Both the position numbers and the translations under genes were made by a program. The notes under the pieces were generated by a model, which was not told where the DNA came from, made no database searches, and saw nothing but the letters and a program-made list of their open reading frames with translations. Source: a virus (taxonomy: Duplodnaviria > Heunggongvirae > Uroviricota > Caudoviricetes). From it: DNA of 9,150 nt. The stretch is taken from IMG/VR virus record IMGVR_UViG_2541047807_000006, one strand, 5' to 3'. Shown here piece by piece: positions 1,240-6,211 of the stretch. Numbering within the stretch: position 1 is the first letter of the stretch; every line of letters starts with the position of its first letter.

Positions 1240-1280
1240 CAAATTACGGCTGTTTTTTCTTTAAGAGATTACAGCCGTGA

Positions 1281-1320
1281 ATAAATCGTAGAATATCGGA
1301 AAATATCTGCAAATATCTTC
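1281..1320. repeat. Four tandem 10-bp phased repeats, consensus (A)AATATC, in the int-alpA intergenic region
   Basis: Seen directly: ATAAATCGTA / GAATATCGGA / AAATATCTGC / AAATATCTTC with exact 10-bp periodicity. Function as binding sites or curved DNA is inferred. Confidence 0.4.
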
Positions 1321-1658
1321 GCTTTATATATGTCAACCATCAAAAAATTGGAATGTCTTCTTCTGAACTTTTATTCTCTGTTTCTTGATTGTTCCAACAC
1401 TTGATGGTTTATCTATTTGTTTTTAATGAGATAATTCAAGCGTAATGCCAAGTAACGACATTTTTTGTTGCATCGCTTAAAAACTCGTGACACGATTTTA
1501 AACACTAACGAGCTTCTACGAACCTTAGCGAACAAAGCCTTTAGCAAGGTTGTGTTTTTAATTTAAGAGGTGAAAAAAGAATCTAAGTAATATCCGATCT
1601 CATATATCTACAGCTAAGAGAAAAGTTTATATACGTAATTTTTTATGTAGGTTTTTGT

Positions 1659-1868: not shown

Positions 1869-1982
1869 AGGGGAGCATATGACATATAAAACAAAGGCGA
1901 CCGGGGGCGGTCGCCAATGGATACACACTAAACTTGAACGCATCACCAACAATGCCACATTTGCGGCTGGTGGGCAATGTGA

Positions 1983-2171
1983 TCAGTCAGATTTGGTTCG
2001 TTCCAAGGTTTGCAACGAGAGCTTTTTCCTGTGCTCTTTAAGGAATTTCTCAAGAGCAAAAGCACATGGCGCGAATCTTTCTGATTCATGCTCTATCTTT
2101 CTGCGCCGTCTTTTCCGTGCCGGTGATAATGTTTTGGTCAATTCTTTATCGGTCATTGTGTTGTCCTGCAT
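1983..2171 (-). CDS. Hypothetical small basic protein (62 aa), possibly co-transcribed downstream of the RHH gene
   Basis: ORF on the same strand, 42 bp downstream of the RHH gene stop. Very basic (KRRRRK) with no recognisable motif. No clear Shine-Dalgarno at the first ATG; a weak AGGA precedes the internal ATG (MTDKE...). Could be spurious. Confidence 0.25.
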   Translation of the reverse strand: MQDNTMTDKELTKTLSPARKRRRRKIEHESERFAPCAFALEKFLKEHRKKLSLQTLERTKSD

Positions 2172-2213: not shown

Positions 2214-2393
2214 TTACTCCTGCTCTTTGGCCTTGCGACGCTGGCGGCGTTTGATCTCGCCTTTTGCGGCAGTAACTAAAAAACCAGCGGTACTTTCGCC
2301 AGGTTCTTTAAGTTGCTCAATATCATCCATTACTTCATGTGGGATTCTGACAGTTGTCATTTGTGATTTTGCGTTCTTTGCACCAGTTGCCAT
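2214..2393 (-). CDS. Ribbon-helix-helix (CopG/Arc-like) DNA-binding protein, about 59 aa
   Basis: Start trimmed to the internal ATG at 2393, which is preceded by AGGAGA with 7-nt spacing. The protein MATGAKNAKSQMTTVRIPHEVMDDIEQL... has an N-terminal beta-strand (TVRIP) followed by two helices, as in RHH folds. The N-terminal 56 codons of the track ORF run through an AT-rich region and look non-coding. An alternative start is the ATG at 2360 (48 aa). Confidence 0.55.
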   Translation of the reverse strand: MATGAKNAKSQMTTVRIPHEVMDDIEQLKEPGESTAGFLVTAAKGEIKRRQRRKAKEQE

Positions 2394-2459
2394 TTCTGGA
2401 TCTCCTAAAAATTGGTGTATGTCAGTATACGCAAAAAAAATGATAAAAAAAGGCTTGAA

Positions 2460-2505
2460 GTGTATTTCACCAGTGAGTAAATTAAAAAGCAAAGGTGAAA
2501 TACAC
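2460..2505. promoter_or_regulatory. Perfect 12-bp inverted repeat GTGTATTTCACC-N22-GGTGAAATACAC in the divergent promoter region; candidate operator
   Basis: Seen directly. It lies in the AT-rich gap between the minus-strand RHH gene and the plus-strand small-gene operon. The operator role is inferred. Confidence 0.45.
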
Positions 2506-2586
2506 CTGAAAGAGCAACGCCCCGCAGTGCTCGCAACACATGCAGGGCGTCTAACCACCAACGATAGAAAGCGTATCGAGGTAGCT

Positions 2587-2790
2587 ATGTTAAATCATAC
2601 CACACACCCGCAAGGGCGGGACTCGCACAACCTGAATAAATACATCTGGCGTTTTATCGCCCTGAGCACGGCACAACCGCGCGTAATCCACATCGAGGCC
2701 ACCAGCGAACAGAAAGCCCGTCAGCAATCCCCGGCTGGCTACGTGATGGTATTCGCCGCCCGTATTCGTCAGGGGGTGTGCCATGCCTGA
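2587..2790 (+). CDS. Small hypothetical protein, 67 aa (possibly Icd-like; tentative)
   Basis: Internal ATG at 2587 preceded by GAGG with 5-nt spacing. Only the last 67 codons of the 303-codon frame look protein-like (YIWRFIALSTAQPRVIHIEATSEQKARQQSPAGYVMVFAARIRQG). The stop overlaps the next start (ATGCCTGA). Resemblance to Icd-like small proteins of P4-like prophages is from memory and unverified. Confidence 0.5.
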   Translation: MLNHTTHPQGRDSHNLNKYIWRFIALSTAQPRVIHIEATSEQKARQQSPAGYVMVFAARIRQGVCHA

Positions 2791-3109: not shown

Positions 3110-3409
3110 ATGAGAACATATTTATCTGGCTTGACTGCCAGCGGTTATGCACACCCCAAAATTATCCCCGGCGCTATTTATCTGGATAAGAACGGTAACA
3201 GAGTAACGGTAAAAGAACTGATGTTTGACCGTGTGTATTTTATTCGTGATGGCTATTCATTTCATAGTTCGCTGAACGTGGAGATCTTTATTAGCAGATT
3301 CCGGCGGGAAATCCCGACTTCCAGAAATAACCATGTGTCACGTGTGGATGTGGATAAAAAACTGCAGGAACTGAAAAACATGATTGCCGCGTGGAGAGAG
3401 CCGAAATGA
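3110..3409 (+). CDS. Hypothetical protein, 99 aa
   Basis: ORF with GGGGA upstream. Its stop TGA (3407-3409) overlaps the ATG (3406-3408) of the primase gene in an ATGA arrangement, indicating translational coupling. No recognisable motif. Confidence 0.55.
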   Translation: MRTYLSGLTASGYAHPKIIPGAIYLDKNGNRVTVKELMFDRVYFIRDGYSFHSSLNVEIFISRFRREIPTSRNNHVSRVDVDKKLQELKNMIAAWREPK

Positions 3410-5223
3410 AAAAAGCGCCAAATTTAAAACACCAGCCGCGTGACAAAATGACGGAAGTCATCATTTTTGCGGGTAGTGATGCGTGGGCACATGCGAAGCA
3501 GTGGCAGGAACAGGACGGGCGACTGGCTGGCGATAACGTGCCACCTGTCTGGCTTGGAGAGCAACAACTTGCCGAACTGGACAACCTGCAAATCGTACCG
3601 GACGGACGCTATCGCGTGCGTCTCTACCAGGCGGGGTTATTGCGTCCGGGGCTTGTTAATACCATCGGGCAGAAACTGGCAGCGGCAGGTGTCAGGGATG
3701 CTGATTATTACCCTGAAGGAATGCACAGCCAGAAACGGGAGAACTGGCGCGAATATCTGGAACGTGAACGGGCAGAGCTGGCGGAAAAGAAAAAGGTAGT
3801 TGAACTGCCTGTAAAGAAAAAAGAGCGGGTAAAAGACGATAACGCTTCATCACTGGCGCTTAACCAGATGGGAGCAAGTCAACGCGGCGAAGTTCTCCTG
3901 GCACATTATGGCGGTGAACTGGCGATTCATGCTGACTCTGACACTGTTCACCATTACAACGGCGTTGTATGGGAGCCGGTTCAGGATAAAGAGTTACAGC
4001 GTGCTATGGCGCAGATTTTCATTGATGCGGAGATCAGCTATTCGCAGAACGCCATTAAATCGGCGGTCGATACCATGAAGTTAAGTTTGCCTGTAATGGG
4101 GAATACAGCCCGTAACCTGATTGGATTCAGTAACGGGGTATTTGATACCAGAACAGGTAATTTTCGGGAGCATAACAAAAACGACTGGTTGTTAATTGCC
4201 AGTGAATTACCTTTCAGCCCACCAGCAGAGGGGGAAACGCTGGCAACACATGCGCCGAATTTCTGGAAGTGGTTACGCCGTTCGGTGGCTGAGAATGACC
4301 GCAAGGCGGATCGCGTACTGGCTGCCTTATTCATGGTGCTGGCGAACCGGTACGACTGGCAGTTATTCATTGAGGTAACAGGTCCAGGGGGAAGTGGTAA
4401 AAGCGTGATGGCGGAGATTTGCACCATGCTGGCGGGTAAGGCCAACACAGTATCGGCAAGCATGAAGGCGCTGGAAGATGCAAGGGAACGCGCGTTAGTG
4501 GTTGGCTTTTCGCTGATTATCATGCCGGATATGACCCGCTACGCTGGTGATGGGGCAGGGATTAAGGCCATTACAGGCGGTGACAAGGTGGCAATTGACC
4601 CGAAACACAAAGCCCCCTACTCAACGCGTATTCCGGCAGTAGTGCTGGCGGTTAACAATAACGCCATGTCATTCAGTGACCGCAGCGGGGGGATCTCACG
4701 TCGTCGGGTGATATTCAATTTTTCGGAAGTTGTACCGGAGAACGAACGTGATCCAATGCTGGCGGAAAAAATAGAAGGTGAGCTGGCGGTAGTGATTCGC
4801 CATCTGCTTACACGGTTTGCTGACCAGGACGAAGCCAGACGCCTGTTATATGAGCAGCAGAAATCTGAAGAAGCACTGGCGATAAAGCGAGAGGGGGATT
4901 CGCTGGTGGACTTCTGCGGCTATCTCATGGCGTCGGTAATGTGTGATGGCCTGTTAGTGGGTAATGCTGAAATTGTGCCATTCAGCCCACGCAGGTATCT
5001 CTATCATGCCTATCTGGCTTATATGAGGGCACATGGGTTTGGTAAACCTGTAACACTGACGCGCTTCGGTAAAGATATGCCGGGGGCAATGGCGGAATAT
5101 GGCAGGGAGTATATGAAACGGAAAACGAAGCACGGTTTGCGTTCAAACGTGACACTGACGGAGGAATCAGAAGACTGGATGCCATCATGTGTATCGGTCA
5201 CTAATGACGATAGCAAAAATTAA
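3406..5223 (+). CDS. P4 alpha-like replication primase/helicase (D5_N-like region plus SF3-type P-loop NTPase), about 605 aa
   Basis: Walker A GPGGSGKS and a Walker B-like LIIMPDM are seen directly, and the NGVFDTRTGNFREH region resembles D5 N-terminal-type domains. The track start at 3391 is a GTG; the ATG at 3406 has GGAGAG upstream and overlaps the preceding stop, so is preferred. The gene is immediately followed by TGTTCACC iterons. Confidence 0.88.
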   Translation: MKKAPNLKHQPRDKMTEVIIFAGSDAWAHAKQWQEQDGRLAGDNVPPVWLGEQQLAELDNLQIVPDGRYRVRLYQAGLLRPGLVNTIGQKLAAAGVRDADYYPEGMHSQKRENWREYLERERAELAEKKKVVELPVKKKERVKDDNASSLALNQMGASQRGEVLLAHYGGELAIHADSDTVHHYNGVVWEPVQDKELQRAMAQIFIDAEISYSQNAIKSAVDTMKLSLPVMGNTARNLIGFSNGVFDTRTGNFREHNKNDWLLIASELPFSPPAEGETLATHAPNFWKWLRRSVAENDRKADRVLAALFMVLANRYDWQLFIEVTGPGGSGKSVMAEICTMLAGKANTVSASMKALEDARERALVVGFSLIIMPDMTRYAGDGAGIKAITGGDKVAIDPKHKAPYSTRIPAVVLAVNNNAMSFSDRSGGISRRRVIFNFSEVVPENERDPMLAEKIEGELAVVIRHLLTRFADQDEARRLLYEQQKSEEALAIKREGDSLVDFCGYLMASVMCDGLLVGNAEIVPFSPRRYLYHAYLAYMRAHGFGKPVTLTRFGKDMPGAMAEYGREYMKRKTKHGLRSNVTLTEESEDWMPSCVSVTNDDSKN

Positions 5224-5236
5224 ACTTATGGAATAA

Positions 5237-5459
5237 CTGTTCACCACTGTTCACCCTGTCATAAATATCTTTTATATCAGTATATTATAGGGTGAACAGT
5301 TATTTATGAACTGTTCACCAAACTATTCACTGTTCACCTTTTTGGTTGTTTATTGAGCTTCAAGGGTGAACAGTGGTGAACAGTTGGTGAATAGTTTTTG
5401 TGAAACTGTTCACCCCTTAACATTATGAATTAAAAGAGAAAATATCAAAAGGTGAACAG
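5237..5459. repeat. Iteron array of about 10 copies of CTGTTCACC / GGTGAACAG in both orientations; candidate P4-type replication origin (ori/crr-like)
   Basis: Seen directly: tandem copies at 5237-5245 and 5247-5255; inverted pair GGTGAACAGTTA-TTTAT-GAACTGTTCACC (5291-5319); further copies at 5330-5338, 5365-5373, 5375-5383, 5406-5414 and 5451-5459, with a degenerate GGTGAATAG at 5386-5394. The octamer TGTTCACC is, from established knowledge, the type I iteron bound by P4 alpha protein. Confidence 0.75.
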
Positions 5460-5596: not shown

Positions 5597-5618
5597 GCCG
5601 GAGCAATCCGCCTTTTTT
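5597..5618 (+). terminator. Terminator-like hairpin GCCGGA-GCAA-TCCGCC followed by T6; 5' end of repeat copy 1
   Basis: Seen directly: 6-bp stem with one C-C mismatch, a GNRA-type GCAA loop, then TTTTTT. The structure, not the stem sequence, is shared with the copy-2 hairpin. Confidence 0.45.
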
Positions 5619-5692
5619 ATGGGTCCTCCCGGTGGAGTGGTCTGCCACGGGGCGGGAGCGTCGCGGAAAAAGGCTGGTTTTTGCATTTTCAT
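5608..5692 (+). repeat. Direct repeat copy 1 (85-bp conserved core, GC-rich with internal dyad symmetry)
   Basis: Three mismatches over 85 bp against 8143-8227. Contains nested complementary segments CTCCCG...CGGGAG and GTGG...CCAC. Confidence 0.85.
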
Positions 5693-6004: not shown

Positions 6005-6211
6005 GTGAGTTGTATTAATGACCTGAACACGGGCGATATCAGGGGTGGTTCCGTTCATCTGGATGCGCAGACCGTTATGCGCCTTAAGCAGTACAGGATC
6101 GACCATATAAATCATCATCCTGACAAACCATTACCAGGTGTGGCGCAGATTGTCAGACATGCCGTAAACACCTGGCTTAATCAGAATGGTTTTGCATCGG
6201 TGGGGGAATAA
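6005..6211 (+). CDS. Hypothetical small protein, 68 aa, GTG start, translationally coupled to the protease-capsid gene
   Basis: GTG at 6005 preceded by AAGAGGAAG. The stop TAA overlaps the ATG of the next gene (TAATG at 6209-6213). No recognisable motif. Confidence 0.45.
   Translation: MSCINDLNTGDIRGGSVHLDAQTVMRLKQYRIDHINHHPDKPLPGVAQIVRHAVNTWLNQNGFASVGE

Follow-up and report, generated by a model that had tools for sequence, protein, structure and literature searches.

The immI region of phage P22 combines two small ribbon-helix-helix (RHH) repressors, Mnt and Arc, with a pair of divergent promoters (P_mnt and P_ant) and the antisense RNA sar, and Arc contacts the bases of its operator through residues Q9, N11 and R13. 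Among the RHH repressors carried by plasmids, omega accepts short repeats in direct or inverted orientation, and CopG of pMV158 acts alongside an antisense RNA. In the phage-inducible chromosomal islands (PICIs) of Gram-positive hosts, the Staphylococcus aureus pathogenicity islands (SaPIs), the Stl/Rpr regulator is transcribed divergently from the excision and replication operon (PMC6092414). For the model Gram-negative PICI, EcCICFT073, induction and transfer by helper phages have been shown experimentally; AlpA is the activator, helper phages induce alpA, overexpression of AlpA alone triggers excision and replication, and the authors considered the existence of a repressor unclear (PMC6092414). 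Here, we analyzed a 9,150-base stretch of viral DNA (IMG/VR record IMGVR_UViG_2541047807_000006; hereafter, the window), which is a small phage satellite, a Gram-negative PICI of the EcCICFT073 type. Our focus is a minus-strand gene for a 59-aa RHH protein and the intergenic region that it shares with the divergent replication operon, where we find three repeated operator-like sites and a predicted antisense RNA. Together, the RHH repressor, the three operators and the antisense RNA probably constitute the on/off switch of the satellite.

The RHH gene occupies 2217-2393 on the minus strand (stop codon, 2214-2216; ATG, 2391-2393). A program-made list of open reading frames (ORFs) gives a minus-strand frame at 2214-2561, within which the ATG at 2393 is the start that makes biological sense, yielding a protein of 59 aa, MATGAKNAKSQMTTVRIPHEVMDDIEQLKEPGESTAGFLVTAAKGEIKRRQRRKAKEQE. 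An earlier, sequence-only reading of this stretch had marked out 2214-2586 for the gene and its surroundings; the gene ends at 2393, and 2394-2586 is intergenic. The same reading had proposed a real minus-strand gene with a strong Shine-Dalgarno sequence, which held up on several lines: AGGAG (CTCCT on the plus strand, 2402-2406) is read from the sequence 8 nt upstream of the ATG, RefSeq annotates a 59-aa coding sequence (CDS) named YlcI/YnfO family at the equivalent position in relatives, and the codons show purifying selection. Specifically, the window differs from a Yersinia locus (L004) by 17 synonymous versus 3 amino-acid-changing codons, and all pairs of the group sharing the beta-strand sequence QMTTVRIP together give 1983 synonymous versus 800 amino-acid-changing differences.

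The protein matches NCBIfam NF041551 (YlcI/YnfO) over profile positions 1-42 of 42, scoring 64 bits against a cutoff of 30 (E = 9.2e-18), as well as two PHROGs of unknown function. An AlphaFold2 model of the monomer, built with 39 homologues (mean predicted local distance difference test, 86.5) has an extended N-terminus followed by helices at residues 19-28 and 35-58. This corresponds to the N-terminal beta strand and two helices of the RHH class, and the inter-helix turn G32-E33-S34 (G32 in at least 90% of the 39 sequences, E33 and S34 invariant) has the G-x-S/T/N form that opens helix 2 in such proteins. In an hhalign comparison of low probability, residues 12, 14 and 16 fall on Q9, N11 and R13 of Arc. 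No Pfam RHH family (RHH_1, Arc, CopG and others) matches the protein at E values up to 1, and the weak Pfam matches obtained (Sigma70_r2, DUF7557 and GhoS) are each far below cutoff. A profile search against PDB sequences returned only noise for the RHH protein, and Foldseek against the PDB gave nothing significant, with the N-terminal domain of SeqA as the top match (E = 2.6). Judging from the model, we accept the protein as RHH at the level of the fold, so that the earlier assignment stands for the fold but not for membership in a curated RHH sequence family. The family's namesakes in the cryptic prophages DLP12 and Qin, YlcI and YnfO (NF041551; DUF3950), share its length class, basic arm, strand (xIRFP), helix, G-S turn and second helix, but the relationship to YlcI is distant (hhalign probability, 12%), and YlcI lies beside cos and nohD in a prophage rather than in the regulatory region of a satellite. 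A tblastn search of 50,697 phage records with the RHH protein found no match, which argues that these records contain no close homologue from a helper phage.

As the sequence-only reading had noted, the shared intergenic region contains a perfect inverted repeat with a 22-nt spacer, GTGTATTTCACC at 2460-2471 and GGTGAAATACAC at 2494-2505, and this repeat is extendable to 17 nt at 88%. Its core, GTGTATTTCAC, occurs in exactly two exact copies in the window, both within this repeat, and a third copy with two mismatches lies at 2415-2425. With up to two mismatches allowed, the window holds 7 matches against 2.4 expected, a number that none of 200 shuffles reached. We compared 77 loci with relatives of the gene, taken from one-genome-per-species contigs and aligned upstream on the start codon, from Escherichia, Yersinia, Pectobacterium, Dickeya, Serratia, Hafnia, Kosakonia, Raoultella, Xenorhabdus, Proteus, Morganella, Providencia, Gilliamella and other genera; the operator and promoter counts below come from the 66 of these loci that form the main clade. 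There, a unit of 11 bp, GTG-N5-CAC, recurs three times at fixed offsets from the ATG: O1 at -32, O2 at -77 and O3 at -99 to -113. O1 matches O2 in at least 8 of 11 positions in 63 of the 66 loci, and O3 is present with at least 9 of 11 matches in 64, inverted relative to O2 in 28 of them and direct in 36, with an O2-O3 spacing that varies from 11 to 24 nt. In the window, O1 is the degenerate copy at 2415-2425 (GTGTATGTCAG on the plus strand, CTGACATACAC in the sense of the gene), O2 is the left arm of the repeat (2460-2470) and O3 is the right arm (GTGAAATACAC, 2495-2505). On this comparison, the 12-bp palindromic operator described earlier resolves into two separate putative operator units, O2 and an inverted O3, among three of 11 bp; its identification as an operator is retained on the strength of the co-variation described below, and the single palindrome is not.

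All three sites coincide with predicted promoter elements. The leftward promoter of the RHH gene, P_L, has a predicted -10 hexamer TATACT at 2424-2429 (minus strand), and O1 overlaps its -10/start region. At this one offset, TATACT is found in 53 of the 66 loci and TAnnnT in 62, always fused to O1, and O1 begins with CTG instead of GTG because it overlaps the hexamer. The rightward promoter, P_R (plus strand), has a predicted -35 TTGAAG (2455-2460) abutting O2 and a predicted -10 TAAATT (2478-2483) 17 nt after it; among the loci, TTGAnn abuts O2 in 65 of 66, and TAnnnT follows the -35 by 16-18 nt in 64 of 66. Thus, as the coordinates place them, O2 lies within the P_R spacer and O3 (about +4 to +15 in the window) at or just after the -10/start, an arrangement kept in 64 of the 66 loci. 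Both promoter predictions draw on conservation, not on consensus strength. The layout is classic for steric repression of both promoters, and we infer repression as the sign of regulation. It also agrees with the earlier proposal that the protein represses the operon of accessory ORFs and primase, since the sites of such a repressor, acting on itself as well, should fall on both divergent promoters, as they do on the predicted ones. An antisense RNA (see below) is an addition to that proposal.

Next, we asked how the sites and the protein vary together. The inner 5 bp of the operator track the residues of the beta strand in a near one-to-one mapping that defines roughly 15-20 specificity classes among the 66 loci. 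The strand QMTTVRIP goes with the inner pentamer AAATA, QQLNARFP with AATCG, KKLEARVP with TCAGC, LQVSVRLP with AACAC, QALKARVP with TGGCC, KRFDVRVP with TCGGA and QSVTxRxx with TCTTA. Residues 12-14 are MTT in the window, QLN in the class of E. coli KGu016 (locus L001; operator GTGAATCGCAC) and ALK in the class of CFT073 (operator GTGTGGCCCAC). Mutual information with operator class is highest at residues 12, 13 and 14 (2.21, 2.03 and 2.63 bits, respectively), residue 14 is wholly fixed by operator class, and Arg16 is invariant, as are the outer GTG and CAC triplets. The rule derived from the other loci correctly predicted the EcCICFT073 pair, QALKARVP with GTGTGGCCCAC at both O2 and O3. Inside a class, the sites are 94-100% identical, compared with 61-91% for the spacers and 5' untranslated region (UTR), and in two classes that span several genera the spacers and 5' UTR are 61-84% identical. 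Between classes, the inner pentamers are 30-34% identical, below the spacer at 53%. As in RHH systems, then, beta-strand residues appear to specify repeated operator subsites, by comparative evidence, and the repeats are supported as the cognate operators of the RHH protein.

Beyond O3, a second conserved element overlaps the start of the rightward operon. A GC-rich hairpin at 2516-2552, between O3 and the first gene of the operon (the Icd-like gene), keeps its position in nearly all loci and varies in sequence. It forms part of a predicted SymR-like cis-antisense RNA of ~81 nt on the minus strand, at about 2508-2588 (both ends are predicted). RNAalifold on 52 loci gives a 5' hairpin with the anti-Shine-Dalgarno CCUC in its loop, a single-stranded UUG(U/G)GGUUA (UUGGUGGUUA in the window), the long terminator hairpin (2516-2552) in the 3' part and a U-rich tail. 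Pairing is kept in 97.3% of the cells of this alignment, and 17 of 23 pairs show compensatory change; none of 500 shuffles reached as high a value, and slid controls were 33-44% paired. Read as the minus strand, the alignment contains 162 G.U cells at this level of pairing, compared with 6 G.U cells and 84.3% pairing for the plus strand; because the wobble pairs favor the minus strand, we assign the RNA to it, i.e., to the sense of the RHH gene. The window sequence folds at -38 kcal/mol (z = -4.95) as the minus strand versus -24.1 kcal/mol (z = -2.28) as the plus strand. The predicted -10 of its promoter, TATGAT preceded by TGg (2594-2599, minus strand), falls within codons 3-5 of the Icd-like gene, some 7 nt ahead of the point where the RNA is predicted to begin; TAnnnT is invariant at this position in 52 of 52 loci, and the E. 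coli KGu016 locus has TGgTATAAT. In the Icd-like gene, the predicted RNA has its complement in the 5' UTR, the Shine-Dalgarno sequence (2578-2581) and the opening bases of the start codon.

The closest described RNA is SymR of symE, likewise a short (~77 nt) cis-antisense RNA that starts just inside the coding region of its target and has a 5' hairpin, a single-stranded UUGUG(A/G)UUA and a terminator hairpin topped by AGUGUUG...GCAC. The predicted RNA shows the same type of placement: it is antisense to its target from the 5' UTR over the ribosome-binding site (RBS) to the start, and it would be transcribed from a promoter in the target's first codons and terminate before O3. Rfam searches of the whole window and of 2380-2700 gave nothing above noise and no SymR match. 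In relatives, SymR (RF01809) is matched at full length and on the same strand, below the gathering threshold of 61 bits: locus L031 scores 39.1 bits (E = 3.6e-6 in a 301-nt search), and loci L055, L060 and L037 score 25-32 bits (range among relatives, 24.9-39.1). The R1162/RSF1010 countertranscript (RF00043) also stays below its gathering threshold of 55 bits, with 28.4 bits in a relative and 18.3 bits in the window. The target differs as well: in place of the SymE toxin or of IncQ repA, it is an Icd-like gene at the head of a primase operon. We therefore describe the RNA as SymR-like, not as a member of the SymR family. This conserved RNA is probably part of the same switch. C4/isrK-type immunity RNAs, which have been reported for some Gram-negative PICIs (PMC10111431), were absent from the window in the Rfam scan.

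The protein and its sites also appear to travel as a unit. Compared with the E. coli KGu016 locus, the window is 100% identical over 1860-2237 (from alpA through a 62-aa ORF and into the 15 codons that close the RHH gene), drops to 64-69% over 2261-2510 (the N-terminal ~44 RHH codons and the operators; 8661-8910 in L001) and returns to 87-94% beyond. Compared with E. ruysiae (locus L002), the pattern is reversed: the 2261-2510 interval matches at 99-100%, the sequences stay nearly the same as far as about 2556, and the flanks are unrelated. The identity pattern of these two loci indicates that the reading head and the operators move together by recombination, with cassette breakpoints in the conserved C-terminal tail of the RHH protein and in the terminator of the antisense RNA. 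In its exchange behavior, this satellite cassette is similar to phage immunity regions.

Judged by analogy, P22 immI is the closest analogue in logic. Both loci have a small RHH repressor divergent from the operon it controls, or here would control, with operators that overlap back-to-back promoters, and each includes a short cis-antisense RNA, here a predicted one, which has its promoter within that operon and covers the RBS of a downstream gene; the alignment of Arc Q9/N11/R13 with positions 12/14/16 is a further likeness, at low probability. The two differ in that Pfam and PDB searches detect no sequence homology, in the number of repressors (one here, two in P22), in the sites (three 11-bp units versus operators of 21 bp for Arc and 17 bp for Mnt) and in the operon, which in the satellite consists of an Icd-like gene and primase and in the phage encodes an antirepressor. 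CopG and omega are the best structural matches and are very small RHH repressors of a replication operon, as the satellite protein would be, but they recognize a 13-bp element and 7-bp heptads, respectively, and are plasmid-borne, unlike the chromosomal satellite here. Stl/Rpr is the positional analogue in Gram-positive PICIs and is alike in logic as well. Stl is large and is inactivated by helper-phage proteins, whereas the RHH protein has 59 aa and no obvious ligand domain. In addition, int and alpA lie here on the other side, transcribed toward the repressor gene, and AlpA is a demonstrated activator. None of Stl, the P22 repressors, CopG and omega is homologous to the satellite RHH protein by sequence.

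On these grounds, the switch would most likely work as follows. The beta-ribbon of the RHH protein would read the 11-bp GTG-N5-CAC unit, with Arg16 contacting the outer triplets and residues 12-14 the inner 5 bp. Binding at O1, on the -10/start of P_L, would give autoregulation, and binding at O2 and O3, on the spacer and start of P_R, would shut off the replication operon (the Icd-like gene, accessory ORFs and primase), such that RHH dimers at O1-O3 keep the integrated island silent. The ~81-nt antisense RNA, if made constitutively, would act as a second lock: it would cover the RBS of the first rightward gene, terminate just before O3 and block translation of any leaky rightward transcript. 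Because protein head and operators are swapped among satellites as a cassette, many mutually exclusive specificities could arise. As for the lifting of repression, one route would be transcription driven by AlpA, which would leave the convergent alpA gene, cross the repressor gene in antisense and enter the rightward operon; another would be a helper-phage factor. Read-through from alpA is attractive as a candidate route because alpA is convergent with the RHH gene and because the T-run of the hairpin between them faces leftward only (see below). In this scheme, protein binding, repression, promoter activity and derepression are all deduced from sequence.

Several observations weigh against this scheme. 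A generic sigma-70 scan called neither P_L nor P_R, which have 8-9 of 12 consensus matches and, for P_L, a weak -35. The 8-bp distance from GTG to CAC is wide for a single RHH ribbon, and O1 carries 2-3 mismatches in the window and in EcCICFT073. Shared ancestry partly confounds the co-variation between protein and operator, against which the identity of sites within classes and the divergence of pentamers between classes both argue. Finally, since AlpA alone induces EcCICFT073, any repression by the RHH protein must be one that can be overridden.

Among the alternatives, the one that survives best, although still unlikely, is that the protein binds these sites without repressing the rightward operon, either controlling itself alone or serving that operon as an activator or architectural factor. 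AmrZ-type RHH proteins can both repress and activate. It is the position of the sites that speaks for repression: O2 between the -35 and -10 and O3 at or just after the -10/start in 64 of 66 loci is where a bound protein would obstruct polymerase, and this placement is kept even where the orientation of O3 flips.

A second alternative, raised by the sequence-only reading, is a toxin-antitoxin module in which the RHH protein is a type II antitoxin, the 62-aa ORF downstream is the toxin, and the repeats are the autoregulatory operator of the pair. This ORF (1983-2171, minus strand; phrog_21027) encodes a small basic protein, is co-directional with and downstream of the RHH gene and probably yields 57 aa from 2156 (1983-2156), as its sixth codon is the start in RefSeq and in all homologues. 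Its homologues diverge to about 55-60% identity with in-frame indels and keep the core ERFAPCAFALEKFLKE, by which it is a genuine small gene, so the RHH gene is not the only credible minus-strand gene, as had been thought; that strand holds this ORF and the predicted small RNA as well. The toxin-antitoxin interpretation is very improbable on comparative grounds. The minus-strand genes turn out to be unequally conserved: the RHH gene spans many genera, but the 62-aa ORF family was found only in Escherichia (including E. albertii and Shigella). It is missing in E. ruysiae L002 beside an identical RHH cassette, and in at least 22 loci the 155-430 nt between the RHH gene and the convergent alpA contain no ORF as long as 35 aa. 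Moreover, the 62-aa ORF has no Pfam, NCBIfam or PADLOC toxin or defence match and falls only into a PHROG of unknown function; PADLOC was negative for defence and toxin functions with the 57-aa form as well as with the RHH and Icd-like proteins. The 59-aa RHH protein ends a few residues past helix 2 (modeled to residue 58) and thus lacks a toxin-binding extension, and only one of the three operators is at the promoter of the supposed pair, the other two being at the rightward one. The ORF looks like a lineage-specific passenger, i.e., an accessory gene and not a conserved partner.

The leftward transcript of the RHH gene and the 62-aa ORF would end at a terminator-like hairpin, GGCGACCGCCCCCGGTCGCC followed by a T-run (1886-1915, minus strand), located after alpA. 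The T-run is present on the minus strand only, and alpA and the RHH gene converge in nearly all loci; transcripts from alpA may read through, antisense, into the repressor gene. As a separate observation, some homologues of the 62-aa ORF (P0135, P0139, P0151, P0169 and P0170) end in ...GD(A/V)(K/E)EQ(E/K), and most of these endings match the KEQE that terminates the RHH protein, which suggests recombination or fusion between the 3' ends of the two genes in some elements.

Similarly little credence goes to a third alternative, that the repeats are origin iterons or cos-associated packaging sites and the YlcI-family protein is a replication or packaging accessory. In its favor, ylcI of DLP12 and the terminase gene nohD are divergently transcribed on either side of the cos region (locus L079, E. 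coli K-12, 4252-4834), and the YlcI family has no assigned function. The window, however, contains a separate cluster of ACTGTTCACC-type iterons, direct and inverted, at 5226-5437, directly after the primase gene, where PICI origins have been reported (PMC6092414) and which is presumably the origin of the satellite; on this basis the origin-iteron version was rejected. In addition, the GTG-N5-CAC sites coincide with promoter elements, and the packaging genes are 4-6 kb away. Least probable of all is that the inverted repeat works as a hairpin in RNA or DNA that terminates or attenuates transcription between the divergent genes: its arms could pair over 12 bp with a 22-nt loop and a small hairpin in O3 with T-rich sequence behind it came up in a terminator scan, but we rejected this reading on the direct-repeat loci, as O3 is direct in 36 of 64 and the 11-24 nt spacing leaves no conserved hairpin, and a third copy lies 45 bp away with the copies keeping identity rather than complementarity.

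The surroundings of the locus identify the element that the proposed RHH switch would serve. Co-oriented int (tyrosine integrase, 1-1239) and alpA (1659-1868; Pfam PF05930) lie at one end, followed by a D5-type primase gene (3391-5223; Pfam) with the iterons downstream, in an element of small size, as in Gram-negative PICIs. Near-identical elements of E. coli are inserted between cspD/yljB and clpS, and the annotated island genes of E. coli KGu016 span ~9.7 kb. The rightward operon consists, by synteny and by Pfam for the last two, of the Icd-like gene, orf106, a DUF4222 gene and the D5-type primase gene (to 5223). The Icd-like gene (2587-2790, plus strand; 67 aa) matches NCBIfam NF033153 with 69 bits; NCBIfam names it a host cell division inhibitor, and its PHROG, phrog_6196 (E = 4e-42), a transcriptional repressor. 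The left half of the window matches EcCICFT073 gene for gene, the order there being int, alpA, a 57-aa hypothetical (minus), a 59-aa YlcI/YnfO protein (minus), the Icd-like gene (plus), small ORFs, DUF4222 and primase. The small CDSs of CFT073 bear late-added locus tags (C_RS30120, which is the RHH gene, C_RS30800 and C_RS30125), so the first annotation may have lacked them; the counterpart of window 2405-2515 lies at about 1380655-1380770 of NC_004431.1. The synteny of int, alpA, an RHH gene on the opposite strand and a divergent operon ending in primase is kept from Escherichia to Xenorhabdus, Proteus and Gilliamella.

Other features of the element stand apart from the switch. The right half carries a fusion of ClpP protease and major capsid protein (6211-8124) and a DUF1441 gene (8294-8866). 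A 94-nt direct repeat, 93% identical, occurs upstream of the capsid operon (5599-5692) and upstream of the DUF1441 gene (8134-8227); it includes ACGGGGCGGGAGCG, which we take to resemble the lambda cosN region, and could be a duplicated cos or late-regulatory site. Just before the protease-capsid fusion, a 68-aa ORF (6005-6211, plus strand; phrog_4934) has a strand-helix-helix-like pattern and, like the RHH protein, a weak match to DUF7557; it may be a second small RHH-type regulator. Rfam places an int-alpA RNA (RF02996) above threshold between int and alpA in loci L060 (6842-6911) and L026 (6469-6537), and it was not found in the 420-nt int-alpA spacer of the window (1240-1658).

In kind, the RHH protein and its sites are an ordinary RHH repressor-operator system. 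Where checked, the literature on YlcI/YnfO/DUF3950 merely lists the name (PMC13612085), and the papers on EcCICFT073 and a survey of Gram-negative PICI organization mention neither the RHH gene nor the antisense RNA; a literature search, which did not extend to most subscription journals, found no paper linking an RHH protein to PICIs or describing this regulator. With the present comparison, a probable function as a regulator can be assigned to the uncharacterized YlcI/YnfO (DUF3950) family. More tentatively, and with clearly less confidence than we place in the switch itself, we suggest that the RHH protein, operators and antisense RNA could be the missing immunity or master-repressor system of EcCICFT073-type PICIs, with ~15-20 exchangeable specificities deciding coexistence and cross-repression in one cell, overridden on helper infection by convergent transcription through the repressor gene, driven by AlpA. 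Gram-negative PICIs are widespread satellites that mobilize virulence and defence genes, and the known regulator of EcCICFT073 is the activator AlpA. The analysis offers a concrete repressor candidate inside EcCICFT073 itself, consisting of a 59-aa protein, operator coordinates, a predicted recognition code and an unannotated antisense RNA, and the many pairs of protein and cognate site could be put to use as orthogonal parts for repression. If the immunity reading is true, the system would be a satellite immunity switch made of parts unlike the Stl repressor of SaPIs and the CI RNA of P4.

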